A DNA stretch of 64,000 bases from Microbotryum violaceum (Eukaryota). Both the position numbers and the translations under genes were made by a program. Below, one piece after another: positions 5,897-26,184 of the stretch. The first letter of the stretch is position 1. Each line of letters opens with the position of its first letter. The notes beneath the pieces are model-generated. The model did not search any database. It worked only from the letters and a program-made list of their open reading frames with translations, and had not been told where the DNA came from. Location of the stretch: NCBI GenBank assembly GCA_001244265.2, contig CDLV01000006.1:806001-870000 (forward strand), in the 5' to 3' direction.

Positions 5897-6516
5897 TCTT
5901 AGGGAAAGAGAATGGGCGATGTTGTTTTATCAAAATTACAATCCAAGAACACTTCGTGGGGGTTTTCATGATTTTCTATGTCGTGAAAGCCTGCCTTGAA
6001 CCTTGAAGCTGGGGAGATGCGGTTAGACGCGAGGGCTTCGTTAGAGCCCACGCTCACAAGACGCGGTTTAAGCTACCAGCAGAGAGCAGTTTTCCAAGTT
6101 CAACTCCAAGAGACGTCCAATACCTTGTCCTTCATATTTTGTTCCGTCTGAATTCCAGCAAAAAAGAGGGTTGGTAGTGTAGAGCGCAGAGCTGTCTCTG
6201 AAGCGCACGATAGGAGCTGGCGGGAGGCTCGAGCGTCGGCCGGGGAAAGGCGCCGAAAGTCCAGCTCACGCTCACCGTATCATGCTGTGAATCTTGCGGA
6301 CACTCTCCGCGGGAGGTGGTCGCATTTAACTGGAATGATTTTCTTCTGTTATCTGTCTGCATGATCAGCGAGCGTGGGTGGTTGTTGCTGCCCTCCCGTC
6401 CAACGTACGTGTGAGACTTCGAAGCGGCAGTGAGACTGACCCCCCATTTCGGCGCTGGGGCGCTTCGCTCGGGCGCCTTCGGGTCTACAACTTGAACTTC
6501 CGCTAGGACCAGAGGA

Positions 6517-8365
6517 TTTTTTTTTTTTGTTTAACTGGGCTCATAAATTACGATCCTTCGGGTTGGCTAGAATCGCTACAAAAAGAGCTAAAAGAGGTAA
6601 TAAAGCAACGACGACAAGCAGCTGGGTGAAAATCAAACCCCTGCGCGCAAAGAGCGCTGCGCAGATCAAAGCCCGCCGAGCACCTAACGCGGACTCCAAC
6701 GGGCGGTGAGTACTGCTGCCGCTTCACGTCCCAAGCGCGGGAGCGAAGATACTCGAAACCAGGCAAGAGCGCCTAGAGAAAGAAGGAAGAGAATATACAG
6801 AAAGTCACAAACGGGAACACCGAGAAAGTAAAATACTAAAACAAGGAGAAAGCAGGGGGAGGAGGGGGGACACACCCGAGGGACCAAGAAAGGGGTCGAA
6901 GCCAGGGATAGAGGCCCCCAAAGACTAACAGGCCGCAGCCAAGCCCCAGCTACCCGTCACCCCGACAACGCCCGATGGCCCTCCTTGGCTGAGTCTCGAG
7001 TGCTGGCTGTTGAGCCGTCGGAAGTCGGGCAAAAAAACGATTCAATAGAACGAACGAGCCTTCTTCCCGATCCACACCGTAACGACCATTCCATTCGACG
7101 AGATCCATCAAGCGGCTTGGAGGGAAAAGGGGAAGGTGGCTGAAGCATAGTCAACATCCGAGCGAGACAGATGGGAAAAGAGAATGGAAAAGGGGGAAAG
7201 AGAGGAGATATATATAAAAAACAGCGGCTCTTCACATAGCCTCCAAAAACGATTGACCCTGCTTGCCGATCCAACATCCAAAAACGAAGATTGCCACTGG
7301 GCAAAAGAAAGGAAGAGAGGTGTGCAGCCTTCCACTGCGCACCAAGTTTCGAGACAGTCAGCTTCCAAAATGAAAGTCGACCTTGGAAAAGGAAGAGAGA
7401 GAGAGAGATAAAAGAAGGAAGGAAGGAAGGAAAGACTTAACTCGATCATCACACCTCCCAATCTCGAGCCCCAGGAACAAAACCCGCCCGAGAGAGAAAA
7501 TCTCGCTTGAACGCTCTAAGTGCACTGGGGATCGAGGGAGGGGCCACGACGCGGTCCTTCTCGAACCGCTGGTGGACGTGCCAGCGCAGCAAGTGCAACC
7601 GCTGGAACCCGATCGCACAAGCCAACCGAACCCACATCCACTTCGAAGTCGTTCTCCCACGACCCCGCAAAAGGGGGAGCCCCATAGTCAGCTGCTCCTG
7701 GGTGAACGTCGACGGATCGACGTCGGTATCCTCGATGCCGAGCTTGTCGAACAGAATGCGCAGCACCCCGCTCCAGTAGCTGGCCGAGTACGCGCACCCG
7801 AAGAAGCAGTGCGACACCGTCTCGATGACCGCTGCATCGTTGCCACAGAACAGACACGACGGCGAAGAAGCATGGCCCTGGACATGTTGCTTCTTGCGCG
7901 TCGGTGTCACATTGTACATAAGCCGCCAGTGGGTGTCCTGCTCCGCAGCAGACGCGAACCGGTCATGAAGCCAACTCCAGAAGCGCTGCCTCCCGCTCTG
8001 AGAAGTCCCCTTGGGGAAACGCTTGACACGATCCTCCCTCCCTGGGAACCGAACCACGTTCACAAGCCGACGAAGCTTGCGAATAGTGAACGGTCGGGTG
8101 AGCCCAAAGAAGTTGAAGCACCGAGGACGGGGAGCCTCCTTGAGAGGTATCCGAGCAGGTCGCAACGCGGTCTTGGGCAGCAAGGCTTTCGCCTTGAGCA
8201 TTTGACCCACGCGCGACCACACGTGCTCGTGCTGTAGGGCGGGTTCCTTAGAGTGCTGCCAGAACCCGCGTCGATGACCAACCAGAGCCCAGCCCTTCCC
8301 TTCGTCCCTCCAGTACAGGTCCGCGATCTGCGCAAACTTCGCCACTGCGTCCGCATCGTCATATG
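6517..8365 (-). mobile_element. 5'-truncated L1/Tx1-type LINE, family B copy 1 (ORF2 C-terminus 7449-8365, 3'UTR, A12 tail)
   Basis: T12 at 6517-6528. Colinear with 19984-21866. C-terminal Cys/His motif CLFCGNDAAVIETVSHCFFGC (zf-RVT-like). Confidence 0.9.
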
Positions 8366-8377
8366 TAACACATGAAG

Positions 8378-8970
8378 TTTTTTTTTTTGTATGAAACTCA
8401 TCGCTAATTTGCAAGACGAGAAACCCCCCTACGGAACTAAAGGTGATGTTGCCCAGTATGCACGTTGATGACCACAACCGCCGCTCGATGCGTTGTAACT
8501 AGCAGAACAGACCAACCCGATACATCCGAGTTCAAGTCCCCCCACCCACGGTTGCTCCCTCCCAGAGACGAATGAAAGGAAGATTGAAGATAATACACGG
8601 GGAATCTGGAAACGATGGAAGAAATGTTGGTGGTGGTACATGTGTTGTACAGGTGAATCCGATCATAGTTGTACAGTTGAACCTTCTTCGATCTTTTGAC
8701 TTCAGACCCCCCTGAGACTGCCATACTCCTTGAGGCCCTTAATTCTTTGAGACGCGTCGAACAAGGCCTCCGATGGCACAAACATCCCGCTCAATCCGAA
8801 TGATTCACGTGGTCCAAAAGGGGGAATGTAACCCCCTGCGACCGCAGCAATCACATACCCCTTGTACCCGTCTGCGCTGGATCTCCACCGCGGAGTCTAA
8901 CCCCCTTTTCGGTTACCAAAGTCTGCCCCCCTCGCGACCGCACGACCCCAGATCACCCCCATTTCAATGA
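8378..8970 (-). mobile_element. 3' fragment of a poly(A)-tailed retroelement, family C copy 1
   Basis: T11 at 8378-8388. 8389-8897 is near-identical to 19468-19976. A short reading frame ending ..KGLKEYGSLRGV* precedes ~320 nt of UTR. Right boundary approximate. Confidence 0.75.
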
Positions 8971-8974
8971 CTGC

Positions 8975-9058
8975 AACTATTTAGATTCAATTAATAATAT
9001 TATGAATGAATTAAATAGACCCTTAACTTGAATTACTCCTAAAGGTATTAAAATTTAT
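8975..9058 (+). pseudogene. Fragment of plasmid-type single-subunit RNA polymerase
   Basis: NYLDSINNIMNELNRPLT(TGA=W)ITPKGIKIY resembles the conserved P.xW.TP.G motif of T7-like RNA polymerases. Confidence 0.6.
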
Positions 9059-9216
9059 GAAAATAGACATGATTCATTCTATAACTTTGTATACTCGCCT
9101 TTTTTTTGCGCGCAAAAAAAGCAGATAAATTTCCAGTTATATATTATGCTTATTATCCCTAATTTTTTTTTTATTTTTTTTTTTCTTTCCTTTTTTATAA
9201 AAACAGAAAACTGGTT

Positions 9217-9330
9217 GACCAATAGCTTCTAAAGCAGAAGCATATGTTGAAAATGGACCTCCTGAAACTAATTTACCATTATCATACACTCAAACTTTTC
9301 TATTGACTAATAAACGAGCTATTCTCTGAG
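9217..9330 (-). pseudogene. Fragment of GIY-YIG homing endonuclease C-terminal (NUMOD1-like) region
   Basis: Translates with TGA=W to RKVWVYDNGKLVSGGPFSTYASALEAIG. Confidence 0.5.
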
Positions 9331-9570
9331 ATAAAACTAAGTGTGTGTTTTTAAGAAAAACAGACAAAAAAAAGAAAATAAAAAACTGTTCGAAGTGATG
9401 GGATGTAAAGAATGGGAAATAGAGTCTCCGACGGTCTTAACCAGAAGTATAGTTGTTGACCGTTTTCATCAGTGTCGCCTAAAGATTAGACTATACGATA
9501 TTATGAAAGTATATATTATTACATTGGACTAAAGACCTAATTTGTATAACATAGATGAGACCATAAATGG

Positions 9571-9760
9571 TTTTCTTTATCATTCTCGTATAAATCTAAA
9601 CATTCTTTAATAATAGATTCACTAAATGACACTTTATTATCATGACTTAATTTATCATTACCAAAAGTATTAGCCATGTAATGGTAAACATAACATAAAC
9701 CCTCGGAATTAATTTCTTCAGACTCATTATACTGGATAGAAAAATTATAAAAATTACTTA
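9571..9760 (-). pseudogene. Fragment of plasmid-type single-subunit RNA polymerase
   Basis: YVYHYMANTFGNDKLSHDNKV matches the ANxFG.DKL motif of phage/mitochondrial RNA polymerases. Confidence 0.7.
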
Positions 9761-9819
9761 GTTTGGATAGCTTTTTTACATATATTATCATTAACTATAC
9801 ATAATATTACATTAATTCT

Positions 9820-10090
9820 GTTTTCTTGCATAATCTAGGTATGTTTGATAGATATGTTTTAATACCAGCGTTATACGATTACCTTAATAGTCTTAAAGAT
9901 ATCAAAGTGTTAATTGATGCTGATCATAAATACATTCTTGTTAAAGTAGCTGATAGTAAAGTTAAAATTGAGTTTAAAGACTCATTACGAATTTTACCTA
10001 TGTCCTTAGATCGTTTAGCTTCAACTTACAATATTAAAGGTAAAACTGAAGCTTATGATCCTAAGTGACAAAACTTAGATTTTCATTAAC
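9820..10090 (+). pseudogene. Fragment of protein-primed family B DNA polymerase (linear mitochondrial plasmid type)
   Basis: ExoII-like HNLGMFD and FKDSLRILPMSLDRLA motifs. Frame continues through TGA=W at 10066. Confidence 0.85.
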
Positions 10091-10787
10091 TCCCTGGGAC
10101 TGAAGATTGAATTAGGTTTAAGTTGTACTCTGTCCTGCTTTTTGATTATCTGTCCTGCTTTTTGATTAATCAAAAAAGACAAAAAGAGGAAAAAAAGACA
10201 AAACAGAAAAGGAGGAGGAGTAGTTCCTTCAAATTAATCTTATTTATTTATACATCCTCGCGCGCTTGATGAACGGAATAAACAAAGCTCATTATCCAAT
10301 CATATAAGCGCCTTTTTCATCTTTGATGAAAAGCAGCGGGGCTGTTTTTATAAAAAAGGGCGGGTGCATAAGGCACACTCTGAAATACTCCTGCACCTTT
10401 CTAGCCCAATTAAAATTCTACTATATGCTGGAAAGACACTCTCAAGCTACGACCTTGAGCATCAATAAATAAATATTGAGTGAACCTATTAAACCTAAAG
10501 AAATTGAAAGTTTTAAAAATATAGTAGAGAATCAATTTGCGCCTACAGATGAATGAAAAAATGCTCATCTAATGAATGTTGAGTTATCTTCTGTATGTTC
10601 TGTTGAAAACTTTTCTAAAAATCTAAGTAAAGAATTGTCTAGTTTCTTAAGTGTAGTTTCAGATAATATTCCTGTTTCCTCTTTTGGTTAGTTATAAAAT
10701 GTAGAATGTAAAACAACAATGAGGAATAATACATATTCTTCTTTTAAAATAGCTTTTAACAATAGTAGAAAGGGGGGACTTATTAAT

Positions 10788-10867
10788 TAATAAAATTTAA
10801 TTATGAGGAAACTTATCATAAGTGAGAATAGTCCTGTAGCTTCTGATAGAGCGAATCCTAGAATAGC
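10788..10867 (-). pseudogene. atp9: atp9 (ATP synthase subunit c) C-terminal fragment
   Basis: Translates to AILGFALSEATGLFSLMISFL, the conserved second helix of subunit c. Confidence 0.9.
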
Positions 10868-11459
10868 CTAAGAAAATACCTCCCGACTTGATTTTCTGTA
10901 CTGTTCCAAAATAAGAGAGAAGTAAAGACTATATCATAGACAGAAGTTTATCTATTTTTGGCAAAAGAAGAGGTTAAACTATATCCAACCAATTAATCCT
11001 ATAACATTTCAATTTTATATCTTCTTTTGTATAACCTATTCCTATTTCGAATAAATACAGAGTCGTCGCAATTTAATACTGCCTTAGCTGCAGTAATTGA
11101 GGGATATTCCACAACATTAGGTGGCGTAGCTAAGGTATCTGTCACTCTAATAGGCACTCACCGTTTTTTAGAACCGAATTTAATAGTATTATTTATAAGC
11201 TTTTTGCTAAGGCAAAAAATAAAAATAAAAAATATGCTGTTTTTGTCCAGGACAAAAAAATAAAAATAAGCGCCTTTTTCATCTTTAGTTTTTTTAGACA
11301 AAAAAGGAAAAGCAGCGGGGCTGCTTTTTGCTAAAGCAAAAAAGACGAAGCGCCCAGCTCGGCTGGGCGAGGGCGACGAAAAGAAAAAGAGTCGGGCTAA
11401 GATAAAAAAATCTAAAGTGATGGGAACAAGAGTCGGGCGAGTACAATAATTGTTTACTT

Positions 11460-11685
11460 ATCTACGTAATATGCAAGTACTTCAATTCCGCAGTTTTTGA
11501 CATTATTTTTATGGTTTAACATAATTTTTTTAACTGCTAAAATACAACTTAAGAATTGTACCGGTTCCGCAGCTTTATTCAATCATAAATTTTTGAATTT
11601 TTCTTTATCATTCTCGTATAAATCTAAACATTCTTTAATAATAGATTCACTAAATGACACTTTATTATCATGACTTAATTTATCA
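11460..11685 (-). pseudogene. Second fragment of plasmid-type RNA polymerase, overlapping the 9571-9760 fragment in source sequence
   Basis: DKLSHDNKVSFSESIIKECLDLYENDKEKFKNL(TGA=W)LNKAAEPVQFLSCILAVK, including an EPxQFLxC motif. 11599-11685 repeats 9571-9657. Confidence 0.75.
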
Positions 11686-12489
11686 CTGCGAAACAGGCCT
11701 ACTTCGCACAAAAACACACAATCCAGAGATTTCCGGGGAAAGTCATGGAGCATGTGACAGTCCATTGGACACGCCTCGGTCTGCAGCGCGGGCGGGTGGC
11801 CGTCAACACCGGCGCGCAGCTGGAGACAAGAGGCGGGGTATACCTTCCGCAGGGGCCTCGCTTCCCTGCGGCGTACTCCCAATCTCGGAACGCACACTCG
11901 AGTCCCGTTGTACGTGCAGGTGGTTCCCAATCACCGCAGATACTGGGGAAAGAAGGAGCATGAGGCCCACGACGGTGATGTCATTGGGTGGGACCTCGCT
12001 CGAGTGTGGATGTGTATGGCGGTTCGGTACCCGAGTCACCCGCCGCGCGGCCGCGACTCCGAGCGAGCAGCAAAGCAAGGAGAGGCGAGCCACGCAGGCA
12101 GTTTGTGCCGGCCTTGAACAGGAGATCACGGAGTCGCTCGACCGAAAGAGAAAACAGACCCGGCCCTTGAGAGGAGTGGAAAACTCACGGCGTAGTCCAG
12201 GAGAGGGCCGAGGGGATCCGCTTTCGCTGTGTGTCATCGTGATGTGGCAGAAGCTCGAACCAAGGGCGACGATGCTCGCCGGCGCAAAGAACTCGAGGCT
12301 CCTGGGGAGTACGGAAGCCTATGATGAGGAATGGCAAAAAGAGCGAGAGAAAACAGGTTCAGTATGCTGGCGTTTTTGGGAGACAGTGGAGAAATTGAGA
12401 AAGAGGGAAAGGGGACTTGTGATTATTTTTATTTTTATTTTTTTTATTTTTTTGGTTTTGGTTTGGGTAGGGAGGGAGCGCCGTCTACT

Positions 12490-15400
12490 TCATCGTGCCA
12501 GTCTGAGCTCCAACCTCTCCTTCAGTCCGGCCATCTCCTTGTCCATGCTCGACATCGCTCTGGCGTGGCGATGGAGATCCCAGCGTCGGTTGCTGAGAGT
12601 GTCAAGCGCCAGCGCAATGAAGGCGCGGGTTGGGCGCTTTTTCGAAGCCGGAAGGCGAGCGCGCAGTCGAGGGAGGCCGTGCTCGATCTGAAGTGCCGTG
12701 TAGTCGAGGTCGAGGATCGACACGACCCCCAGCGCGTCGCAGAGAATGGACCTAGCTGCTTGCCAAAACTGAGAAGAGTCAGGGCAATCATGCCAAAAGT
12801 GAGTAAAGTCATCCTCCACCCCTGCCAGGCTGCATGCCTGCACAAGGCAGCAGGCCGAGTCGCCATGCCGCTGCACAAACTGGCGCTTCCGCGTTGGCGT
12901 GAAGTGGTACGCCAGCTTGAAGTGCACCTCGCGCTCGCGGGCCGTGGCGGGCCCGGTGTTGAACCACCCCCAGAAGAGTCGCCTTTCTTTGGGTGTGGCG
13001 AGTGATCCAGGGCGTTGTGTGTCGTCGAAACGTCGATGGTTGATGACGCGTCGAAGTCGCGCAATGGTGTAAGGTCTGTCCAAGCTCAACATTCTCCACT
13101 GATCAGCACGCAAGGGGGCGGAGGGGAGGGAAAGTTTTTGATCAGGCATGCCGACCGGAGTCGCTCTGGGCAAGATGTGCTCGAGGGGACCGCCGGCCCG
13201 GGCTCCAGGTGCTCCAACGACACGAATGACGGGTGGTCGACGTGCGAGGACGGGAACAGGAGGCGGAAGCGGCGGGATGAAGCGATCGCCTGCGACCTGG
13301 ATCCACGCCTGGACTTGATCGCGCTTCCATTGCCACAGGTTGGACAGCTCCGAGCCGTCGCCTTGGGGATGCTTCTCAGGGGTCCAGGGCACCGTTGGAG
13401 CTGCGGGGTATTCGGCTCGCGCATAGATGTCAGCGATGGTGCGTTCGAAACTGAAAAGCTTCGCCAAACGCTTATCCTGCTCCGAGAACACCCGCGAGTC
13501 ATGCAGACCAGGTTGGAGGGGAGAAAGAGAGAGAAAATTGGAGACCGAAAGTTTGGCAGGATCGACGACGGCAGGGTAGCGTTCAGCGACCGAGAGCACC
13601 GCTCGCCAGCGGGGATGTAGCTCCCGGGGTGCGTCGGCGTTCCTCCACGTCCACAGATCCGTAGCAAAGTCAAAGGTTGGAAGCGCTCGCCGGATGGAAC
13701 TCCGAGCCAGCTCGCCCCAAATCGCAGTTGACCCGCCGGCCAGCACGTCCCAAATCCGTACCGAGACTGAATCCACCACATCTTGGATGCTCACGACGCT
13801 GAGACCACCTCGCGCCCGTGCCGTGAAGACGACCGATTGCTTGTAGTCGCTGCGCCGCGGGCCTCCCTTCACAAAGTCAGCAAGCTTGCGCTCGATCGAC
13901 TTGATCACGTCGGATGGCGGGATGTCGGCGGAGAGAGAGTGCAGCACCTTGGAGATGCCGTAGCGGTTAAGATAGAAAGCCCGGGTATGGTGCGTCATCC
14001 ATCGGTCGCGCACCGATAGAATCACTCGATCAACCCTTCGCTCAAGATCATGGAATCCCAGCCTGTTGTTGCCGTCAGGCGCAAACTGGAGACCGATCCA
14101 GGGAAGAGACTCGTCCGGTGCCACGAACGACAGTTTGGACAAGTCCGCGCGATCCCACAACGTCGCGCCCAATGGCATCACCACAGTTTTGTCGGTGTTT
14201 AGACGTCCGTTCGTCGCGAGTCGCCAATCCCGAGCTAACGCCTCGAGCGAAGCAATAGCTTCCGGCCCAGCAACAGCGACGACGGCGTCATCCGCGAACG
14301 CCAAATTGGTGATGCATCGAGTCTGCGGACGATGAGCCAGCTCCGGAAGAGTGATAGTCAGCGCAATGTTGCGTCGACTGAGAGAATCAAGGAAGGGTTG
14401 GAATACCACATCCCAGACAGAAGAAGAGAGAGGATCGCCCTGGCCAAGACCGCACAGGAGTCGCACCGTCTCGGTGAGGAAACCGTTGACAATGTACCGC
14501 GCTGTGGACGTCTCGCCGTTGTAGAGCATCCGCAAGACGCGCTGGAAAGGTTCCGGCGCGCCGAGAGCCTCAAACACCGCAAAGACCCAATCGTGCTCGA
14601 CCATGTCGTAAGCCGAGCTCTGATCCAGGGAGAGGAGCGCTGCTGTCGGGAACTCTGCCCCACGACCCCTAATCTCATCGATCAGGAGCCGCAGATGCAA
14701 AGCCGCGTCCGCTGGTCTTCGCCCCTTGACGAACCCATGCTGTCCGGCCGGAAGAACATCGGGGAGGATCCGGTTCAGACGAGCCACGTAGACCTTGGTG
14801 AAGATCTTGTAGTCGCATTCCCGCAAGGTGATCGGACGATACGATTTGAGGTCGCACCGTGCTGCACCAGGTTTGTTGTGTTTGAACAAGAGGCGCACAT
14901 TGGCCTGGCTCTGTTGTGGAGTAAGGGAGCCTCGAGTAATCAGCTCGTTGTAGGCTCGAGTCAAGAGAGGGGCCCAAAGCAGGGGGCAGGCTCGATACAT
15001 CTCATAGGGGACCCCTGAAGGACCCGGAGATCGACCTTCGTGCGTGGTTCGAATCGCTGCGAGCACCTCGGCCTCGCTGATGGGCTCGGCCAGAATGTCG
15101 ACGTGCGAATTCGAGAAGCGCCGAAGGAAGCGAGCGTCGGAAAGCGGGTCGTCACAAGGTCTTGCTGATCTGATGGGTCCCAAGAGCTCATCCCGCATCG
15201 TCACGACCTGTTCCGGATCCTTCGCTTCGACAAGGTAGTGCTGCTGGAAATGAGAATGGGTGTGTTCGAGCGCGCGCTCAATGTCAGTGGTGAGCTCGCC
15301 ATCAGCGAGCCGGATACTCTGAAACTTCACATCGCGGGACCGAGCAGCCAGTTTGGCATGTACCGGACGACTGAGACGTTCCTCGGATGCAATCTCGGGA

Positions 15401-16530
15401 ACGTGCGCCCTGATCCGGGACTGCCTTGCTCGCTCGTTCACAAGCTTGGAGAGAGCGTCGTGGGTGTTCGTCCAGTCGATAATATCGAAGGGGCTTAGCA
15501 CCCGACGAGACTCAATGTCCTGCAGTCGAGATACCAGCATCATCTCGAGGGCGTTGCGCTCCCGAAACAGACGCCGAGACAGCTCGAGAGCTTGGACCCG
15601 AGACTCCGAGAGTACGCGCTGAAGGTCCGCGACCGGATCCCCAGACGGCGCCTGCTCAAGGAGAGGAGTGACGGACTCCTTAAACTCGGCGTGTTTGAAG
15701 GTCGACGAGTTGATGCGGGTCAGAAAATGCGCCGCCTGGGGAAGGCAGAGCTCCTCTTCGACCTCGGCACCACTTGCGCGCAGCCTAAATGTGACCATAA
15801 CCGGTCGATGATCCGACATGGGTCGAGAGATATTGTACAGAGTAGAAGCAGAAACGATCCGTCGCTCGTGTCGCCGCTGCACCAGAACAAAGTCGATGCG
15901 CGCGCGCGAAATGAGCTGGCCATCCTTGCTGAGATGCGGGCGCGTGGTCGCCGGCGACAGTGGGTGCATGAGCCGAATGGCATCCGTGTACGCCCCGTCA
16001 AGCCGAGACATAAGCACAGGCCAGTGGTGGGTGTTCGGGCGGTCCACCTGTTGCGCTCGATCCACCGCGGGAATAGGGCAGTCGTTCAGATCGCCCGCGA
16101 TGAACCGAATGTGAGAGGAGACGGTCGCCCGAAAGTGAAGGGAGGTGAAGAAGAGGAGGCGCTCGGCGGGTTGAACCGGAGCGTAGATATTGTTGAGTTC
16201 GACGACGTCCGTCGAACCCCGCACATCGAAGGTGGTCACGAGTAAGCGCCCGCCAAGAGACTGACGCGTGCGACGATGACCACCGAGAAGAGGAGAAGAG
16301 CTTGGAATCAAAGTGAGGCAGTGTTGAGAAAAGTAGGCCTCGCCCTGGTGGGACTGGGCGTACTCGTGGCGTATGTGAGGTTGCCGTGCTTTAGGAACAT
16401 TATGTTCCTGGAGAAGGATAGCAGAAGGGGGAGGTGTGAGCGAAGTGATATACGAAAGAAGCCGACGACGTCGTTCAGGGGTATTGAAGCCCCTGTTGAC
16501 GTTCCAGGTCATGATGATGAAGTCAATCAT
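12490..16530 (-). CDS. LINE ORF2: APE-type endonuclease, reverse transcriptase and C-terminal Cys/His domain (1346 aa, uninterrupted)
   Basis: TWNVNRG, LLQE, GDLND, RIDF, SDH (endonuclease); SPGPSG, YRPITL, QHGF, GLGQGDPLS, FADD (RT); C..C...HFWHDC. Confidence 0.95.
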   Translation of the reverse strand: MIDFIIMTWNVNRGFNTPERRRRLLSYITSLTPPPSAILLQEHNVPKARQPHIRHEYAQSHQGEAYFSQHCLTLIPSSSPLLGGHRRTRQSLGGRLLVTTFDVRGSTDVVELNNIYAPVQPAERLLFFTSLHFRATVSSHIRFIAGDLNDCPIPAVDRAQQVDRPNTHHWPVLMSRLDGAYTDAIRLMHPLSPATTRPHLSKDGQLISRARIDFVLVQRRHERRIVSASTLYNISRPMSDHRPVMVTFRLRASGAEVEEELCLPQAAHFLTRINSSTFKHAEFKESVTPLLEQAPSGDPVADLQRVLSESRVQALELSRRLFRERNALEMMLVSRLQDIESRRVLSPFDIIDWTNTHDALSKLVNERARQSRIRAHVPEIASEERLSRPVHAKLAARSRDVKFQSIRLADGELTTDIERALEHTHSHFQQHYLVEAKDPEQVVTMRDELLGPIRSARPCDDPLSDARFLRRFSNSHVDILAEPISEAEVLAAIRTTHEGRSPGPSGVPYEMYRACPLLWAPLLTRAYNELITRGSLTPQQSQANVRLLFKHNKPGAARCDLKSYRPITLRECDYKIFTKVYVARLNRILPDVLPAGQHGFVKGRRPADAALHLRLLIDEIRGRGAEFPTAALLSLDQSSAYDMVEHDWVFAVFEALGAPEPFQRVLRMLYNGETSTARYIVNGFLTETVRLLCGLGQGDPLSSSVWDVVFQPFLDSLSRRNIALTITLPELAHRPQTRCITNLAFADDAVVAVAGPEAIASLEALARDWRLATNGRLNTDKTVVMPLGATLWDRADLSKLSFVAPDESLPWIGLQFAPDGNNRLGFHDLERRVDRVILSVRDRWMTHHTRAFYLNRYGISKVLHSLSADIPPSDVIKSIERKLADFVKGGPRRSDYKQSVVFTARARGGLSVVSIQDVVDSVSVRIWDVLAGGSTAIWGELARSSIRRALPTFDFATDLWTWRNADAPRELHPRWRAVLSVAERYPAVVDPAKLSVSNFLSLSPLQPGLHDSRVFSEQDKRLAKLFSFERTIADIYARAEYPAAPTVPWTPEKHPQGDGSELSNLWQWKRDQVQAWIQVAGDRFIPPLPPPVPVLARRPPVIRVVGAPGARAGGPLEHILPRATPVGMPDQKLSLPSAPLRADQWRMLSLDRPYTIARLRRVINHRRFDDTQRPGSLATPKERRLFWGWFNTGPATAREREVHFKLAYHFTPTRKRQFVQRHGDSACCLVQACSLAGVEDDFTHFWHDCPDSSQFWQAARSILCDALGVVSILDLDYTALQIEHGLPRLRARLPASKKRPTRAFIALALDTLSNRRWDLHRHARAMSSMDKEMAGLKERLELRLAR

Positions 16531-19343
16531 TACGATTGCGCCTTCGTTGCAGCAGCAGCTCCCTTGATGGACAACATAGGTCCGAATGTGGGTGAGGGGA
16601 GCGGGTCCGCAGCAGTCGATTCGTTCCAGTCCGATGTGCGCGCAACGCTGGTGAGACGCTGGATACGCTCGGACCGGCGAAGACCCTGGGAACTTCCTTT
16701 GTCCACCTCCTGCTTGGGCTCGGGCTCGGGATCAAACACTGGACCTGGAGACGGCGAAGGCATCCAACCGGTTACAGACGGGGTGCGGTCCAACTCGGTG
16801 ATCTCATCGTACAGACCAGCATCCTGTTTGCGCTCGCGGTCCGACACACGATTCATCCAGTCGTCGGGAAGGCCGTCCATATCAAGCTGATGGTGACTGG
16901 CCGATCGGGACCGCGTCAGCTCAGGGGTCGTCGAAACAACCACAGGCACAGTGCCCGTCTCGGCCGACTGCGATTCCCCTTCTTCCGCGTCACTCGTCTC
17001 CGTGTGTTCCTCCTGGCTCCCCTCCGCTCCGCGGTCCTACAGATCCGACAGATCCGAAGGCTCCAACGGCGGCACCTCCTGCTGTTGTTCCAGCTGTGCC
17101 TCGACTACGCTCATCGCGTCCTCGTCGTCCTCGAGAGCCTGAGCGGGCTCCTCCTGCGCCTCTTCGGCCACGTCGCCGGCCAGACTTGCGAATGGGTTCG
17201 CGGCGACGATGAAACCGCGAGGGGCGGATGCTGTGGGTGTAGAGCTTTGTGAACGAGTGGGGTAGACTCGTGGTGAGTTGTTAGTGTCCCTTGAGGGAGA
17301 TGCGTTCTTCTTTGAACGCTTGAACGCGACAGGAGACATTGGGGGAGAGGGAGAGGCTACATCACTGCGTTGTTTTTGGGGGGTCGAGGTTTGCTCGATG
17401 TTGCTTTGGGGCTCGGCCTGGGGCCTTTGGTTGTTGTTTTTCTTCTGGGCGGCCTGCTGACGCTGGACCGCCTTTTGGACGCAGCTGTCGATGTGGCCTA
17501 CGAAGCCGCATCGGCGACAAGAAGCTTCGGACTCGAAGTCGTGTCGAAGTGGCGTGACTTGGGCGAGTCGTCCCCGGAGGTCGATCCTCGTCGGGAGAAT
17601 TTGTCGAAGCTGGGCTCCCTGATTCTTGAAGAGGTCGTCGTTGTCGAACCTGACGATGGCTGAGTAGTTGCCTCGAGCGACCAAATAGGAGTCCTGTACA
17701 ACGTGGAGGGGCTGCTGGAGTTGCAGCAAAGAGCAGCTGTGGCCGCCGGCGGTGATCTGTGCGACGAGACCTTGCAGCTTCGTCCAAAGGAGGTCGGTCG
17801 TGTAATCGACGTCGGGGCTGATCACGAAACGCAACTCGACGACATTCTTGACGAAAGCCAGGCGTTTGCGGACTTGGACAGGCGAGCGTTTCCACTCGAT
17901 CTTGGTCGCCGCTTCATGCACCTTGTCAAGAGCCTCCACGCTGGCGCATCGCACGACGAACTTGAAACGGGTGTTACCGTTGATCTGGACCGCCTCCGGG
18001 GTGACCCCATGGATGACCGGTGCATACTTGGCTAGCTCGGGTGGGAGGACCACTCCGGCGGGAAGGTTGAAGCATAGGGATGTGTCCGGCGATAACGTGC
18101 GGAGCACCTTGGAGTACGCGTCCGCCTTCTCGCGCTCACTAGCGACACCTTTCGACCCCCCAAAAACAACGCAGTGATGTAGCCTCTCCCTCTCCCCAAT
18201 GTCTCCTGTCGCGTTCAAGCGTTCAAAGAAGAACGCATCTCCCTCAAGGGACACTAACAACTCACCACGAGTCTACCCCACTCGTTCACAAAGCTCTACA
18301 CCCACAGCATCCGCCCCTCGCGGTTTCATCGTCGCCGCGAACCCATTCGCAAGTCTGGCCGGCGACGTGGCCGAAGAGGCGCAGGAGGAGCCCGCTCAGG
18401 CTCTCGAGGACGACGAGGACGCGATGAGCGTAGTCGAGGCACAGCTGGAACAACAGCAGGAGGTGCCGCCGTTGGAGCCTTCGGATCTGTCGGATCTGTA
18501 GGACCGCGGAGCGGAGGGGAGCCAGGAGGAACACACGGAGACGAGTGACGCGGAAGAAGGGGAATCGCAGTCGGCCGAGACGGGCACTGTGCCTGTGGTT
18601 GTTTCGACGACCCCTGAGCTGACGCGGTCCCGATCGGCCAGTCACCATCAGCTTGATATGGACGGCCTTCCCGACGACTGGATGAATCGTGTGTCGGACC
18701 GCGAGCGCAAACAGGATGCTGGTCTGTACGATGAGATCACCGAGTTGGACCGCACCCCGTCTGTAACCGGTTGGATGCCTTCGCCGTCTCCAGGTCCAGT
18801 GTTTGATCCCGAGCCCGAGCCCAAGCAGGAGGTGGACAAAGGAAGTTCCCAGGGTCTTCGCCGGTCCGAGCGTATCCAGCGTCTCACCAGCGTTGCGCGC
18901 ACATCGGACTGGAACGAATCGACTGCTGCGGACCCGCTCCCCTCACCCACATTCGGACCTATGTTGTCCATCAAGGGAGCTGCTGCTGCAACGAAGGCGC
19001 AATCGTAATGATTGACTTCATCATCATGACCTGGAACGTCAACAGGGGCTTCAATACCCCTGAACGACGTCGTCGGCTTCTTTCGTATATCACTTCGCTC
19101 ACACCTCCCCCTTCTGCTATCCTTCTCCAGGAACATAATGTTCCTAAAGCACGGCAACCTCACATACGCCACGAGTACGCCCAGTCCCACCAGGGCGAGG
19201 CCTACTTTTCGGTACAGCGCTAGGCCGGGGTTCGCTGGTCCCTCGGCGGCATCGGCCTCCGCCCCCGCGTCACCACGTGGTTGTCCCGTCGCTGCCGGAT
19301 CCGGAGGGCCGCGGCCCGGATCAGGCGGTGCCTGGTCAGACAT
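16530..19343 (-). pseudogene. Family A ORF1 (nucleic-acid chaperone), disrupted
   Basis: N-terminus at 19343-19211, then the inverted duplication, then body from 18151 with knuckle CRRCGFVGHIDSC. In-frame TAG at 17037-17039. Terminal TAA overlaps the ORF2 ATG. Confidence 0.8.
18152..19210 (+). repeat. Inverted duplication of 16328-17387
   Basis: Reverse complement of 16328-17387, matching by eye except for one base in a C-run. The ORF track gives mirror-image peptides. Confidence 0.95.
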
Positions 19344-19416
19344 CGGGTCGATAGCTGGTGTAGCAGTTGATGTATTCGATGTATTGACGTTTGCCGAGGT
19401 AGAGTAGCGTGATTGG

Positions 19417-19456
19417 GATGAAAGATGAAAGATGAAAGATGAAAGATGAAAGATGA
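19417..19456. repeat. (GATGAAA)5 GATGA heptamer repeat at the 5' end of element A
   Basis: Read directly. Confidence 0.95.
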
Positions 19457-19978
19457 TTTTTTTTTTTGTATGAAACTCATCGCTAATTTGCAAGACGAGA
19501 AACCCCCCTACGGAACTAAAGGTGATGTTGCCCAGTATGCACGTTGATGACCACAACCGCCGCTCGATGCGTTGTAACTAGCAGAACAAACCAACCCGAT
19601 ACATCCGAGTTCAAGTCCCCCCCACCCACGGTTGCTCCCTCCCAGAGACGAATGAAAGGAAGATTGAAGATAATACACGGGGAATCTGGAAACGATGGAA
19701 GAAATGTTGGTGGTGGTACATGTGTTGTACAGGTGAATCCGATCATAGTTGTACAGTTGAACCTTCTTCGATCTTTTGACTTCAGACCCCCCTGAGACTG
19801 CCATACTCCTTGAGGCCCTTAATTCTTTGAGACGCGTCGAACAAGGCCTCCGATGGCACAAACATCCCGCTCAATCCGAATGATTCACGTGGTCCAAAAG
19901 GGGGAATGTAACCCCTGCGACCGCAGCAATCACATACCCCTTGTACCCGTCTGCGCTGGATCTCCACCGCGGAGTCCA
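19457..19978 (-). mobile_element. Family C copy 2 (3' fragment, A11 tail), flanked by AGATGA(T)n on both sides
   Basis: Near-identical to 8378-8897. AGATGA at 19451-19456 and 19978-19983, each followed by a T-run. Confidence 0.78.
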
Positions 19979-19983
19979 GATGA

Positions 19984-22900
19984 TTTTTTTTTTTTGACTG
20001 GGGCTCATAAATTGCAATCCTTCGGGTTGGATGGGACCGCTACAAAAAGAGCTAAAGGAGGTTATAAAGCAACGACAGCAAGCAGTTGGGTGAAAGTCAA
20101 ACCCCTGCGCGCAAACAGCGCTGCGCAGATCAAAGCCCGCCGAGCACCTAACGCGGACTCCAACGGGCGGTGAGTACTGCTGCCGCTTCACGCCCCAAGA
20201 GCGGGAGCAAAGATACTCGAAAACCAGGCAAGAGCGCCTAGAGAAAGAAGGGGGAGAGTATACAGAAAGTCACGACTGGGGATACGCAGAACCAGGAATA
20301 CTAAGACAGAGAGGAGGGGAACACACCCGAGGGGCCAAGTTAGGGGGTCGAAGCCGGAGGTAGAGGTCCCCAGGGACTAACAGGCCGCAGCCAAGCCCCA
20401 GCTACTCGTCACCCCGACAGCGCCTGATGTCCTCCCTTGGCTGAATCTCGAGTGCTGGCTGTTGAGCCGTCGGGGCCGAGATAAAAGCGATCCAGTACAA
20501 CGAAACGAGCCTCGCCTTGACGCGAGGATATTGACCAGAAACGAGCGACCTTCCTTCCCGAGCCATGCCGTAGATCTTGACCAACGCGAACGAACGAACC
20601 ATTCAACGGAATCCAACACACGGCTTAGGAGTAAAAGGAGAAGTGGCTGAAGCGTAGTCAACAACCGAGCAACAGGAACGAGAAGAGGAAGGGAAGGGAA
20701 AAAAGGGGGGAAAGGAGAGGGAAAAACTTCACAAAGCCTCCAACGCAAAGACAATCGACCTGGCTTGCCGATCCATCCAAGAACAAAAAACCGCTACTGC
20801 GCAAAGTAGAGAGAGAGAGGGAGAGGTGCGCAGCCTTCCACTGCGCAACAAGTTCCAAGACAGTCAGCTTCTAAAAGAGGAGTCGACCTCCGAAAAAGAA
20901 GGGAGGAAAGGAGGGGAGGAAAATGGGAAGGAAGGACTTAACTCGGTCATCACACCTCCCAATCTCGAGCCCCAGGCACAAAACCCGCTCGAGAGAGAAA
21001 ATCTCGCTCGAACGCTCTGAGTGCACTGGGGAGCGAGGGAGGGGCCACGACCTTGTCCAGTTCGAACCGCTGATGAACGCGCCAGCGGAGCAGGTGCAGC
21101 CGCTGGAAGCCGATCGCGCAGGCCAGCCGAACCCACATCCATCTCGAGGTCGTTCTCCCACGACCCCGCAAAAGGGGGAGCCCCATAGTCAGCTGCTCCG
21201 GAGTGAACGTCGACGGATCGACGTCGGTATCCTCGATGCCCAGCTTGTCGAACAGAATGCGAAGCACCCCACCCCAGAAGCTGGTCGAGTACGCGCACTC
21301 GAAGAAGTAGTGCGACACCGTCTCGATGACCGCTGCATCGTTGCCGCAGAACAGACACGTCGGCGAAGAGGCATGACCCTGAGTATGCTGCCTCTTGCGC
21401 GTCGGCGTCACGTCGTACATGAGCCGCCAGTGGGTGTCCTGCTCCACAGCAGACGCGAACCGGTCATGAAGCCATCTCCAGAAGCGCTTCCTATCGCTCT
21501 GAGAAGTCCCATCACGGAAACGCTTGACACGATCCTCCCTCCCTGGGAACCGAACCACGTTCACAAGCCGACGAAGCTTGCGAATAGTGAACGGTCGGGT
21601 GAGCCCAAAGAAGTTGAAGCACCGAGGACGGGGAGCCTCCTTGAGAGGTATCCGAGCAGGTCGCAACGCGGTCTTGGGCAGCAAGGCTTTCGCCTTGAGC
21701 ATTTGACCCACGCGCGACCACACGTGCTCGTGCTGTAGGGCGGGTTCCTTAGAGTGCTGCCAGAACCCGCGTCGATGACCAACCAGAGCCCAGCCCTTCC
21801 CTTCGTCCCTCCAGTACAGGTCCGCGATCTGCGCAAACTTCGCCACTGCGTCCGCATCGTCATATGCGTGCTTGGCACCTTCAGCATAGAGTGAAGGGAG
21901 GCGAGGCGGAAGCGAGAGCAATTCGGGGAGCGTAAGGAGTTCGGACTTGATGGTTGGAACTGTGACCCTGGCAGCTGCAACGACTGCCCCCAGCGCGTCG
22001 AGTCGCGATACAGCTTCTCGACCCGAGCCGTGCTGCTGAAGAACCCCCACGGACTGAAATCGCGGGTCGCAGCGACGAGGGACCTCCAGCTCTCGCGAGC
22101 TAGGGGCGCCCAGATCGCCTCGTTCGAGCCCGCCACAGCATCCCAAAATCGAAGCGCCACCGAATGAACGATGTCGCCGATTGAAATCAAGCCCAAGCCA
22201 CCGTCCTCCCGAGCCTGGAACACGAAATCGCGAGCGACGGTATTTCGCCCTGCTCCTCCCCAAACAAAATCCGTAAGTGCTGTCTCCGCCGCCTTAATGA
22301 ACCATTGAGGCGGTATGTCGAAGGACAGCACGTGGAGGACCGTCGAGATGATGTGAGCGTTGGCATAGAAGACCTTCCCACTCGGCGAAAGTGTCCGGTC
22401 TCCAGCGGCGCGGGTCTTGGCCTTGATCCTGTCAAGAACATGGGTCCAAAACAGTTTCGAGTCACCGTGGCGAAAGAAGGCATAGCCGCACCACTTGAAG
22501 CTCTCCCCCTCCTGCACCGTTGGCAGCGCCTGCGCAGTCTCGTCCCGAAGCCAGTTCGGTCCGAGTGGTAGCACCAGCGTCTTGTCCGTGTTGGTCTTCC
22601 CGTTGGTTGCCTCGTACCACGTCTGCGACAGCGTTTCCAGCTTCGACAATGCCGCCGGTGACTCCACTACCACCACAGCATCGTCGGCAAACGCCAGATG
22701 CGTAAGCTGCGCACGCGGCCCCCTGGCCACACCTTCTGCAGGTCGAGCGCGATCCCGCGCCGAACGAGGGCGTCGAGGAAGGGCTGGAACGTGATGTTCC
22801 AAACCGGGCACGAGAGGGGATCCCCCTGACCGAGACCACACAGCAACCGCACCAACTCCGTGGGGAACCCATTGATGAGGTAGCGCACCCCCAGAGTCTC

Positions 22901-25475
22901 GGGATCGTACAGAGCGCGCAGCAGGGAAATGAAACGCTCACCAAAGCCAAAGGCCTCGAAGACGTCGAAGATCCATGCGTGATCGACCCGATCGTACGCG
23001 CTCTGCTGATCCAAGGACAAGAGGGCGCCCTCGGGGAAAACTTCAGTGCCTAGCGACTTGAGTTTTTCGAGAAGGAGAGTGAGATGACTTCCCGCGTCTG
23101 CTGAACGTCTTGATGGCATGAACCCGTGTTGCGCCGGCGGCAAAAGCTCGCCGAGCACCCCATTGAGTCGCGCCACCAAGACCTTGCTGAGGACCTTGTA
23201 GGTCGTCTCGCGCAGTGTGATCGGTCGATATGCCCCAGTGATTTCAGATTGGCCCCCGGTTTGTTCTTGGGCAAAAGCCGCACCAGCCCCTCTGCCAAGG
23301 ACGCCGTCATTTTACCCCCTCCCAAATCGAGTTGAACAGGTCCAACAGCTTGGGAGCGAAGTAGGTTGGCAGCGCCTTGAAGAGCTCGTACGGAATGCCC
23401 GAGGGCCCCGGTGATCGCCCCGAATCCGTCTTCTTCAACGCCGCTTCAACCTCGAGGAGGGTGAAGGGCTCGTCAAGCGCCACTCTCGCTTGACGAGGCA
23501 GCCGACGACCGAACGTAGGGTCCGAGCGGTCGTCATCGTAGCATTTCGCCGCGCGAATAGGGTCGAGCAGGGACCGACGTGGGTTCGTCGGGTCGCCACG
23601 AGCTGGGTCCGGCGTGAAGAGCGACTGTGCGTGCCGTGAAGCAATACCCAGCGCCTCCTGCATGTCAACGGTCTCGGTGCCATCCACATCCTCCAGCGAG
23701 ACGATGCTCGTCTGGCGACTCCGGCGGTTGAGACGCGTGCGAATGCTTGCCGATTGACCTTCCCTCGAGTCGACTGACGGCACATGCGCACGAATGCGCA
23801 GCCACTGAGCCTCCTTTACCGCCAACTGATCCAACTGCGACTTGGCGAGAGCATACGCATCGCGCTCGGCCTCATTCATATGCTCACCGCGTGCCTCCAG
23901 CGCCTCCATGACGGATTGGTTCTCGGCCCGCAGTCGGCGCATGTCGGCACGAGTCGAGCGGTATCGTGCATGGCCAGCGACTGCAACCGCCCGCAGAGCG
24001 GCGTCATAGACGTCGCCGAGCGGAGCGGTCCCCTCGAGCCTTCGATAGACCTCGTCGACGACCCCGGGAATCGATGCGACAAAGTCTTGATCGTCAAAGA
24101 CCGTTGGGTTGAGCCTCGAAATGAAATCGCTCGTAGAGGGAAGAGAAAGGGGGGGTTCGGCATCAGCGTTCGACGTAGGCAATGCGAAAGTCGCAACTAC
24201 AGGTCTGTGGTCCGAGCAGGGCGCATCGAAAAGTGTGGAAGCGCTCAACAACCGGTTTGCCCAACTGCGCTGGACAAGGATATAATCGATCCGCGACCAC
24301 GAGCAGATTTCTCGTTTGTCCCCCTACCAAGGTAGTGAGGGCGAGTGAATGCCGGGGTGATGGGATGGAGTTGTCGGATCGTGTCGAGTGGGTTGAATGC
24401 GATCTTTGACAGCAAGGTCTGCCAGTGCGATACAGGAGTCCAAGCGCGATCGGTGATGGCCACTCGGTCGACCGATACATCCGGACAATCATTGAGATCG
24501 CCGGCCAAGATCCGAAGAGTCTTGGGCCCCGGAGCGGTGAAGTGCAGGAGCCCGTAGAAGTCGCGACGTTCTTCCCCCTTGACCGGCGCATACATGTTGA
24601 TGAGCTCGATATCGAGCTCCTCAAGACGAAACACCGAGCGCAGGATCCGACCGTCGAATTGAGGGGCTTCTGCAAACACGACCGGGGTAGAGGAGAGGAG
24701 GCGGCCCGCCAGAGGTGAGCCATCGGGTATAAGGGTAAGGACATGAGGTGCGAAACGAATACAAGCTCCTGGCCAAGCACTCTCGAAGCCTTCGCGCAAC
24801 GCGTTGTAGCTGAGGTGGTGCTCTTGCAGGAGAATGGCCGCAGGGGCCGGCCGAAGGGTTTTGAGATAGCGGATGATTTTGACTTGGTTGACTGCGTTCT
24901 TGATCGATCGGACGTTGAACGTCAACACGGTGAGGGACTCAATCATGAATAAATTGGATCAGCGCCGCCCCCCTCGAATTCGGTCATCTCGGACCTGTGA
25001 CCCCCTGAACTGTTGCCCCTGAGTCGTCACCCCCTGATGCACCGTGGATCATGGCGGATCCCGCCCGGGTGACACGTCGGTTGCCGGGTGCCGAGCTCGA
25101 ACGAAGGCGTCGAGGACTCGTCGAGGCTATCGAGTTCGTCGCGGTTGCCGATGGTTCCGACGTGCCACCGGACAAAGGCGATGCCGGAGCAGAAGTAGAA
25201 GGCGAAGGAGAGGTCGGGGTCGAAACGGGCGCCGCTGTCGTCGTCTGCGTCTCCTTTGTTGGGCCCGTGGTCGCACGGGTCAACGTCTCTTTCCCAGTGT
25301 CGCCGCCCTCCGGTTCGGTCGAAGCGACCGATTCGCCGTCGTCGTCGTCGTCGTCACCGTCGCCGTCGTTCGCATCGTCCTTGTTGCCGGTCGCTGCACC
25401 TGCGGGGTTAGCACGAGGTCCCAGCTGGATCATGTTCGTGCCAGAGGCACGAGAGTTCAATGCGGCAGGCCCAGA
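19984..25475 (-). mobile_element. L1/Tx1-type LINE, family B copy 2: ORF1 C-terminus, frameshifted ORF2, 3'UTR, A12 tail; 5'-truncated
   Basis: T12 at 19984-19995. ORF1 tail at 24984-25475. ORF2 motifs are spread over consecutive frames. Confidence 0.92.
20950..24946 (-). pseudogene. Family B ORF2 (endonuclease-RT), about five frameshifts
   Basis: TFNVRS/LLQE/GDLND, SDHRPV, SPGPSG, QHGF, GLGQGDPLS, FADD and CLFC...HYFFEC in successive overlapping ORFs. Confidence 0.9.
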
Positions 25476-25753
25476 TTTTTTTTTTTTTTGTAGAAAACGT
25501 TCATCATATTGCCCCCAGTTCCTGTTCCCCCTGTTTTGGCCTACGGAAAAACTAGATGGAAGACTACGATGATAACACAAACCGCCCGCAAAAGTGCGAG
25601 AAACGAGCCAAGTCCACCAATCCGAGATTCGGATTCAAATGCCCTAGCCAAGCGGTTGCTCCCCCCAGGAGACTAATGAGAGAGAGAAAGAGAGACGAAG
25701 AGAAAAAGAAAGAAAAGAAATGTACTAACGACAGAAGGCCCACCCCACAGCCA
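25476..25753 (-). mobile_element. Family D copy 1 (short 3' fragment, A14 tail)
   Basis: T14 at 25476-25489. Near-identical to the first ~275 bp of the adjacent copy. Shares colinear motifs with family C. Confidence 0.72.
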
Positions 25754-25754
25754 A

Positions 25755-26130
25755 TTTTTTTTTTTTGTAGAAAACGTTCATCATATTGCCCCCAGTTCCT
25801 GTTCCCCCTGTTTTGGCCTACGGAAAAACTAGATGGAAGACTACGATGATAACACAAACCGCCCGCAAAAGTGCGAGAAACGAGCCAAGTCCACCAATCC
25901 GAGATTCGGATTCAAATGCCCTAGCCAAGCGGTTGCTCCCCCCCGGAGACTAATGAGAGAGAGAAAGAGAGATGAAGAGAAAAAGAAAGAAAAGAAATGT
26001 ACTAACGACAGAAGGCCCACCCCACAGCCACTTCCCACTCGGTCGAGACGAAGACAAGAGCACGACTGCGCAACCACCACGACCCTCGACGCTCCAAGTC
26101 TCTGCTCAGTCACAACAAGACGCGGTGAAG
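25755..26130 (-). mobile_element. Family D copy 2 (3' fragment, A12 tail); right boundary approximate
   Basis: T12 at 25755-25766. Tandem with copy 1 and extends about 100 bp further. Confidence 0.68.
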
Positions 26131-26184
26131 AGAAATCGTGACAAAATTTGTGTTTTTTGCGATAGATAGCCCTTATACTGCATC

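Follow-up and report, generated by a model that had tools for sequence, protein, structure and literature searches.

The window analyzed here is a 64-kb stretch (64,000 nt) of contig CDLV01000006.1, which is nuclear DNA of a Microbotryum (anther-smut) fungus. Between positions 6517 and 26130 it carries a train of seven poly(A)-ended pieces of retrotransposons without long terminal repeats (non-LTR), i.e. long interspersed nuclear elements (LINEs), with their sense on the minus strand. In sense order the pieces are Db, Da, B2, C2, A, C1L and B1, the letters A to D standing for families. The train is real in outline and tidy, and it is notable for its length, for its interstitial position among genes and for a position next to a tRNA gene which resembles that of the Dictyostelium TRE5 elements. 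It was probably built by serial target-primed insertions, whatever directed them to this place. That these insertions took place at one spot set by the tRNA gene is a more tentative proposal, to which we give somewhat less than an even chance.

The seven pieces with their poly(A) tails had been recognized in an earlier note on this DNA, and they stand. Runs of 11-14 T on the plus strand mark the 3' ends of six pieces, on their low-coordinate side (12, 11, 11, 12, 14 and 12 nt at 6517, 8378, 19457, 19984, 25476 and 25755). Element A ends in an interrupted A-rich tail from 12422, unlike the pure T-runs of the six others. Six of the seven pieces are 5'-truncated. Nested insertion was considered as the origin of the truncated pieces and rejected, as the missing 5' parts are absent from the far side of the neighbours. 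The gaps between each tail and the next 5' end are 1, 3, 7, 0, 0 and 12 nt at the six internal junctions. This agrees with the upper limit of about 12 nt given earlier, on condition that C1L is recognized as one interrupted element: C1 taken as a 0.6-kb piece does not adjoin A, and the gap between the two would then be 3.4 kb. Similarly, the minus-strand orientation noted before holds for all seven pieces, the segment 18152-19210 being a plus-strand copy within A. The chance of a shared orientation in seven of seven pieces is 0.5^6 = 0.016, and in a tblastn search of the 64-kb window with 82 LINE proteins every match falls within the train. The arrangement is therefore more than chance.

The position of the train was then defined on both sides. 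Its 5' end (Db, 26130) faces the mature 5' end of a tRNA-Gly(GCC) gene from a distance of 54 nt on the upstream side. This gene (26185-26255, plus strand; ARAGORN, Rfam score 53.4 bits) is the sole tRNA gene of the window, and an Rfam scan of 6000-27000 found the tRNA alone. The spacer between train and tRNA has 35% GC, compared to 55.7% across the window. For comparison we used contigs of four short-read runs (X9, X11, X14 and X17); joints at other loci come from X17 and X14, which carry two species labels. Other copies of D diverge from the window at 26130 (loose ends in two X17 contigs and one X14 contig), in agreement with the train end proposed in the earlier note. The train is flanked by a CNH-domain open reading frame (ORF) at 4337-5896 and by pyruvate-carboxylase ORFs at 28431-31411 (Pfam). 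A search of the window for a telomere hexamer array (three-unit pattern, up to 2 mismatches allowed) gave 0 matches. With genes on either side and no telomere array, the train is not at a chromosome end. The features of the train are given in the table.

Features of the LINE train and of the adjoining tRNA gene (window positions; UTR, untranslated region)
Feature	Positions	Strand	Remarks
B1, 5'-truncated family B LINE	6517-8365	-	T12 tail 6517-6528, 3'UTR of about 1 kb, end of ORF2 with zf-RVT; homology to B2 up to 8365
12-nt filler TAACACATGAAG (plus strand)	8366-8377		Separates the B1 5' end from the C1 tail
C1L, 3' part	8378-8975	-	T11 tail and 587 nt; first 520 nt 99.4% identical to C2
Mitochondrial, linear-plasmid-like insert in C1L	8976-11684		27-32% GC, mosaic, 2,709 nt
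C1L, 5' part	11685-12421	-	GC-rich; non-coding as far as tested; 5' end abuts the A tail
Element A, main part	12422-18151	-	Tail 12422-12467, ORF2 12490-16731, ORF1 from about codon 103 on, including the CCHC knuckle
Inverted duplicate of 16328-17387	18152-19210	+	End of ORF1 and first 67 codons of ORF2; sits at the site of the missing ORF1 part
True 5' end of A	19211-19456	-	246 nt: 5'UTR, ORF1 ATG 19343, 44 codons, 7-nt repeat array 19417-19456
C2, 5'-truncated C copy	19457-19976	-	T11 tail; AGATGA on each side
7-nt filler CAGATGA (plus strand)	19977-19983		Last 6 nt repeat the sequence left of the C2 tail
B2, 5'-truncated B copy, 5.5 kb	19984-25472	-	T12 tail, complete ORF2, end of ORF1
3-nt filler AGA	25473-25475		Same as the first 3 nt of the tRNA-side flank
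Da, 5'-truncated D copy	25476-25753	-	T14 tail; followed by 1 filler nt (25754)
Db, longer 5'-truncated D copy	25755-26130	-	T12 tail
AT-rich spacer, train to tRNA	26131-26184		54 nt, 35% GC
tRNA-Gly(GCC) gene	26185-26255	+	ARAGORN, Rfam 53.4 bits; 5' end towards the train 5' end

We propose the following course of events. Seven separate insertions by target-primed reverse transcription, made by related LINE families of the apurinic/apyrimidinic endonuclease (APE) type, would all have entered at practically one phosphodiester bond about 54 nt upstream of tRNA-Gly, with the element 5' end towards the tRNA. Each newcomer would have entered between the tRNA and the 5' end of the previous copy, displacing the older copies, and such a placement would account for tails lying 0-12 nt from the neighbouring 5' ends and for the uniform orientation. 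B1 would be the oldest and Db the youngest copy. The capture of a mitochondrial fragment in C1L, and in A an inverted duplication with a deletion, would have come later. What the data show directly is the anatomy of the train, the identity of its families, its geometry towards the tRNA and the return of such joints at other loci. We infer that the events were separate, that they followed this order and that the tRNA gene, with its RNA polymerase III (Pol III) complex, rather than the local sequence set the spot.

Several observations are consistent with this reading. The distance and orientation towards the tRNA are those of TRE5-A, as described below, and all LINE sequence of the window is gathered beside its one tRNA gene. 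The pieces look independent: they have different truncation points, they include two B subfamilies, and a complete tail is present on each. The mitochondrial insert and the rearrangement have hit C1L and A, which are early arrivals under this order. The short fillers point to the tRNA side: AGA (between B2 and Da) and A (between Da and Db) equal the first 3 nt and the first nt, respectively, of the tRNA-side flank AGAAATCG. Both fillers would match by chance in about 1 case in 256, a figure judged post hoc. Target-site repeats were searched in 28 combinations of blocks; 27 gave at most 5 nt, i.e. the random range, and C2 alone gave 6 nt, the AGATGA found on both sides of it, the B2 tail beginning right after the right-hand AGATGA. 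Because of this repeat around C2 and of the match of the AGA and A fillers to the tRNA-side flank, the last four insertions (C2, B2, Da and Db) can be placed at a single nick site, to within 3 nt. The internal tails (11, 11, 12, 14 and 12 nt) show no shortening compared to the terminal tail (12 nt), which argues against nicks inside older tails. As to the order, among the 40 listed of 319 contig-to-window entries, differences number 10 in B1 (4 of them in all four runs), 3 in B2 and 0 in C2, Da and Db. This weakly suggests that B1 is the oldest piece; most of the B1 differences lie in its subfamily-variable 3'UTR.

Other observations weigh against a spot set by the tRNA gene. The case is that of one locus, and its link to the tRNA is a post hoc observation. 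The AT-rich region upstream of the tRNA (35% vs 55.7% GC) could have drawn a founder through an AT-preferring endonuclease, without Pol III targeting. The joints seen at other loci, described below, would be expected just as much with resident tails as the target. A single nick site accounts for the left three insertions only on condition that the 12-nt filler has no template and that the 7-nt repeat is part of the A 5' end, and the poly-T lengths are taken from an assembly with homopolymer errors. Distant relatives of the LINEs in metagenome contigs (18-42% identical) have a tRNA at 2 of 53 loci, neither of them head-to-head at about 50 nt, a comparison which is uninformative for targeting. 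With regard to empty or partly filled alleles, a joint of the left flank to the tRNA flank was not found among the 15 joints listed of 20, and the uncovered parts in X9, X11 and X14 say nothing either way. One X17 joint, 6614 to 25754, was rejected as a candidate; its shorter side is supported by 30 nt and it may stem from another locus.

The closest known system is TRE5-A (DRE) of Dictyostelium. TRE5-A is an APE-type LINE with two ORFs, an oligo(A) end and 5'-truncated copies, and the account given of it places its integration about 50 bp upstream of a tRNA gene, with the element 5' end facing the tRNA 5' end (PMC3159450). The table of a 2018 review gives 40-54 bp for TRE5 insertions (PMC5911963). 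The train shares this position (54 nt) and the fixed orientation (seven of seven pieces on the minus strand, tRNA on the plus strand), here at one locus, and repeated hits at one tRNA gene would stack TRE5 copies head to tail. In contrast to TRE5-A, the train belongs to a basidiomycete, its site is used by several LINE families, and the arrangement is known from a single locus; in the passages of the same review that treat them, the non-LTR elements targeting tRNA genes come from dictyostelids only (PMC5911963). A wider possibility, which we hold to be rather doubtful, is that several related Microbotryum LINE families are position-specific integrators, whose nick lies some 54 nt upstream of a tRNA gene and whose 5' end is directed at it. 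A TRE5-like habit would then have evolved independently in a basidiomycete, and trains would be stratified records with the youngest copy by the tRNA, holding most of the few hundred LINE copies of these genomes.

The strongest alternative, to which we give a slightly lower chance, is that the serial insertions were directed by the resident elements. An L1-like endonuclease, for which the A/T tracts of 11-14 nt at LINE 3' ends would be the best targets in a GC-rich genome, would enter at or next to older tails, and the train would grow away from the tRNA (Db being the oldest) or at internal tails; the tRNA would be a bystander or would mark an AT-rich founder site. The ORF2 of A indeed aligns colinearly from end to end with human L1 ORF2p (E 7e-29). 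Long A/T runs are rare in this GC-rich DNA: the 64 kb contain 10 runs of at least 9 nt, of which 6 are tails of the train. Extra nucleotides occur at the 5' junctions of LINEs, and the fillers described here, AT-rich with G or C at 26 of 97 nt, can be likened to them. More directly, tail-to-internal joints among A, B, C and D recur elsewhere. Among the joints listed from X17 and X14 contigs, at least 8 tail joints at other loci all arrive exactly where a T-run begins: after a 5'-truncated copy of A, B or C come 0-25 AT-rich letters, and then a tail of B, C or D from its first letter on. Public LINE gene models tell the same: 6 of 82, from other Microbotryum species, have two ORF2 ends in series, and in 2 of 82 a truncated LINE is preceded by a lysine run and, at the start of the model, by a 3'-end peptide of C or B. 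Tail-to-internal tandems due to repeated insertion are also described for most Drosophila non-LTR families in the passages of McGurk and Barbash (2018) that treat them (PMC5932611). On the other side, the internal tails are no shorter than the terminal one, and none of the primers ends in T, their last letters being GA, AG or AA. Moreover, the match of the AGA and A fillers to the tRNA flank and the exact TRE5-like distance and orientation would all have to be coincidences. The earlier note had proposed one docking site filled by several families through repeated targeting. We reach the same reading with regard to repeated insertion at one spot, and add the tRNA gene 54 nt away as what may define it, but the site is not unique, as joints of the same families occur at other loci.

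The gene models also bear on annotation. P0007, P0008, P0009, P0010, P0025, P0029 and P0070 are chimeric mis-annotations, i.e. read-throughs of LINE trains with ORF2 ends in series or a lysine run derived from poly(A). P0008 and P0009 share their structure across both mating-type genomes of M. saponariae.

The second possibility proposed in the earlier note was serial template jumping, the plus strand being one long first-strand complementary DNA (cDNA). Under such template switching, in one or a few events, a cDNA begun at 6516 on a B RNA would have been extended over further templates into a chimera. The form of the joints would suit it: each internal joint consists of a 5'-truncated piece and then a complete tail, with 0-12 nt of AT-rich filler (up to 25 nt elsewhere) and no obvious duplication, and the inverted duplicate in A has the topology of a self-copying cDNA. 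There is a fungal precedent in the Magnaporthe chimeras (33 bipartite and 1 tripartite in the account given there), and also one in mammals (PMC2104539). In these chimeras, as described for MINE, for the WEIRD/Mg-SINE/MGL tripartite (SINE, short interspersed nuclear element) and for mammalian U6-L1, a 5'-truncated LINE is likewise fused in one orientation to other retro-copies (PMC2104539). However, the chimeras described have two or three parts, a single 10-20-bp duplication and a non-LINE RNA as the 5' partner, whereas the train has seven tailed parts and no overall duplication (PMC2104539). A template-switch product is expected to have one 10-20-bp repeat around the whole and none at the inner joints. 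The two flanks of the whole train match over 3 nt at best (random pairs reach at least 6 nt in 5.4% of cases), and the internal piece C2 has a 6-nt flanking repeat of its own. A cDNA of about 17 kb from seven templates, one of them a complete 6-kb element, would be far beyond the tripartite chimeras on record in that source (PMC2104539), and every acceptor RNA would need a tail of just 11-14 nt. In addition, the mitochondrial insert lies inside C1L, not at a joint, and is a DNA mosaic absent from the contiguous form of C1L. With a complete tail on each piece and no duplication of the whole train, template switching is improbable, and the single-cDNA proposal is disfavoured.

Two further systems were compared. 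In telomeric LINE arrays (HeT-A/TART, Zepp and Cnl1), poly(A)-ended LINE copies are stacked head to tail and share one orientation. The train resembles them in both respects, but it is interstitial, with coding ORFs on both sides and no telomere repeats. The Drosophila tail-to-internal tandems are read by their authors, in the passages concerned, as independent insertions at one site (McGurk and Barbash 2018, PMC5932611). As described there, they are mostly dimers of one family, or telomeric or in ribosomal DNA, whereas the train comprises seven pieces of four families at an interstitial genic site (PMC5932611). By analogy, the train would work like stacked TRE5 copies or like the Drosophila tandems, with an ordinary mechanism, target-primed insertion.

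An assembly artefact, in which a long-read assembler made or distorted the order of repeats in this 20-kb stretch, has a slim chance, slimmer than that of template switching. The contigs of the runs have one extra C compared to the window at 7 runs of four to six C (21986, 22718, 23232, 23314, 24319, 25015 and 25660), in all four runs at 5 of the 7. These undercalls indicate that the window comes from a long-read assembly, apparently unpolished, and that the B2 frameshifts and the exact tail lengths are therefore not to be trusted; the apparent frameshifts of B2 fall on such undercalled C-homopolymers and are probably errors. Bridging of the internal junctions was not seen among the 32 pieces listed of 5,548, and artefacts can have the form of an inverted duplicate with a spacer. 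Against this, the junction of the left flank to B1 is present up to 6528 in an independent X17 contig of 6,170 nt with 0 differences, and X17 contigs run across both ends of the train. The continuity of C1L is exact on both sides of the mitochondrial insert, which is not expected from a chimeric read. The same type of joint occurs in short-read contigs from other loci and in public gene models under three other species names, so the architecture of trains as such is real. Capture of cDNA and mitochondrial DNA at chromosome breaks is known from yeast, and the mosaic mitochondrial fragment with its 3-nt microhomology would suit a patchwork repair of breaks capturing both kinds of DNA, or later recombination between dispersed copies, but this is very improbable, since random orientations and ends would be expected where seven of seven pieces have one orientation and every 3' end and tail is complete, and since the mitochondrial DNA lies within one element, not between elements.

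The composition of the families was examined next. By homology, A, B and D are related LINE families with an APE endonuclease and a reverse transcriptase. Endonuclease then reverse transcriptase in ORF2, A-rich 3' ends and frequent 5' truncation are all found, as expected of APE-type LINEs. The ORF2 of A (12490-16731, minus strand, 1,413 amino acids, open) matches Exo_endo_phos (E 4e-6) and RVT_1 (E 7e-21). It is 97% identical to a protein named for Microbotryum silenes-dioicae. It has 82 relatives at E <= 1e-10, of which 73 bear Microbotryum names. At the N-terminus of ORF1, which contains a CCHC knuckle, 23 of 23 residues align with the relative P0001 and 22 are identical. Apart from its internal rearrangement, A thus reads as a complete LINE. 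At its extreme 5' end, exactly where the C2 tail starts, there are five copies of a 7-nt repeat (19417-19456), which may be part of A or of the original target and form the sole such array in the window; the repeat has 5 matches in the window compared to 0.32 expected.

The identity between paired copies is 85-88% for B1/B2, 99.4% for C1/C2 and 99.3% for Da/Db. B1 and B2 carry RVT_1 and zf-RVT, and B2 aligns with A across the endonuclease region, the ORF2 identity between B and A being 34-57%. B1 keeps 1.85 kb and B2 5.5 kb, beginning at about residue 384 of the relative P0054. When B1 (6517-8365) is aligned with B2 (19984-21866), no difference is seen over the 200 aligned nt nearest to the B1 5' end, but the 3'UTRs differ by 12-25%. 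This concentration of the divergence in the 3'UTR speaks for subfamilies rather than age, and the pattern suggests 3'UTR subfamilies or recombination. On the sense strand the differences are strand-asymmetric (112 C/T vs 42 G/A). Repeat-induced point mutation was rejected as the origin of the B1/B2 divergence: B1 lacks its TCG signature (2 of 72 sites at which B1 has T), and B2 shows some of it (8 of 40). A fixed 7-nt sequence after the A-run of B (CAGAGGA left of B1, CAGATGA left of B2) was also discarded, as B joints at other loci have different letters. Matches of B-family proteins extending into Da are spurious; the identity ends at the B2 5' end.

D represents the 3'-terminal part of a third LINE family: 33 of 36 of its amino acids are identical to P0007, directly after the first ORF2 end of that protein. 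Da and Db were considered as SINE-like units of equal length, a view rejected as the D homology continues to 26130, and beyond it in other copies. The 5' part of C (11685-12421) has no match from the 82 LINE proteins and no Pfam family. The 3'-terminal 220 nt or so of C and D (8378-8600 and 25476-25700) share conserved blocks, none of which were seen in A or B, and C may be a non-autonomous partner, or a sister 3'UTR, of a D-type LINE.

C1L owes its recognition to the short-read contigs, which fuse its two halves directly (8975 to 11685 in X9 and X11, 8963 to 11685 in X14). Because contigs of three runs join them, C1 (8378-8975) and 11685-12421 form one 1.3-kb element. A shorter C copy, cut at 12027, is present elsewhere according to contig joints. 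The sequence between the halves (8976-11684) gives, under genetic code 4 (TGA = W), fragments matching the Pfam families DNA_pol_B_2 and RNA_pol, i.e. an organellar B-type DNA polymerase and a phage-type RNA polymerase. In X17 its summed contig depth is 6,000-10,000, compared to 225 for the single left-flank contig (roughly 30-45 times). In X14 it is nearly absent, the mitochondrial segment to which it corresponds being itself almost missing there (depth 0.7-26 over 9635-11635). Loose contig ends at 8975, 9059, 9731/9733, 10674, 11341-11355 and 11491/11492 show that mitochondrial contigs leave the insert at 6 or more internal points, and the insert junctions have 3 nt of microhomology. From the loose ends, the genes read in a mitochondrial code and the organelle-like depth, together with the uninterrupted form of C1L in three runs, we conclude that this is a mosaic nuclear insert of mitochondrial, plasmid-like DNA.

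In element A, 18152-19210 (plus strand) copies 16328-17387 with 1 mismatch in 1,060 (99.9%), the two being separated by a 764-nt spacer. About 228 nt of ORF1 (some 76 codons) are missing exactly at the duplicate, residues 27-102 of P0001 having no counterpart. The microhomology at the two breakpoints of the duplicate is 0-1 nt. This topology fits twin priming, or a fold-back of cDNA or during replication; the duplicate may also be an assembly artefact.

Repeated insertion at one spot, the most likely origin of the train, is a known kind of behaviour, which in the literature searched is undescribed for this fungus: that literature yielded no account of LINE trains in Microbotryum or of LINEs linked there to tRNA genes, and no fungal LINE with tRNA targeting. 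"Head-to-tail" is absent from the Microbotryum transposon papers searched, and "tRNA" from the Microbotryum genome paper, the one paper searched for that word. The genome paper reports no SINEs, and 392 LINE copies that make up 0.93% of the assembly (PMC4469406). Provided that the tRNA gene sets the site, we would have here, within the literature searched, the first LINE with targeting to Pol III genes outside dictyostelids, and a convergent "safe-haven" targeting in a compact fungal genome. Whether tRNA gene or resident tails directed the serial insertions, trains would provide a built-in relative dating of LINE activity. Such dating would be of use in a genus much studied for the build-up of transposons on non-recombining mating-type chromosomes. 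As public Microbotryum gene models read through trains, a fragment-by-fragment annotation of repeats miscounts both copies and events.

Two other repeats of the window were recorded. Inverted repeats of 245 nt (95.5% identical) enclose a 1.8-kb element at 26344-28178, which begins 88 nt past the downstream end of the tRNA gene. This element contains a second, inner inverted pair (26699-26761 / 27199-27261) and two ORFs without Pfam family. With this element downstream and the LINE train upstream, mobile DNA is present on both sides of the tRNA gene. A short inverted repeat (83% over 90 nt) lies at 50992-51078 / 51175-51263.

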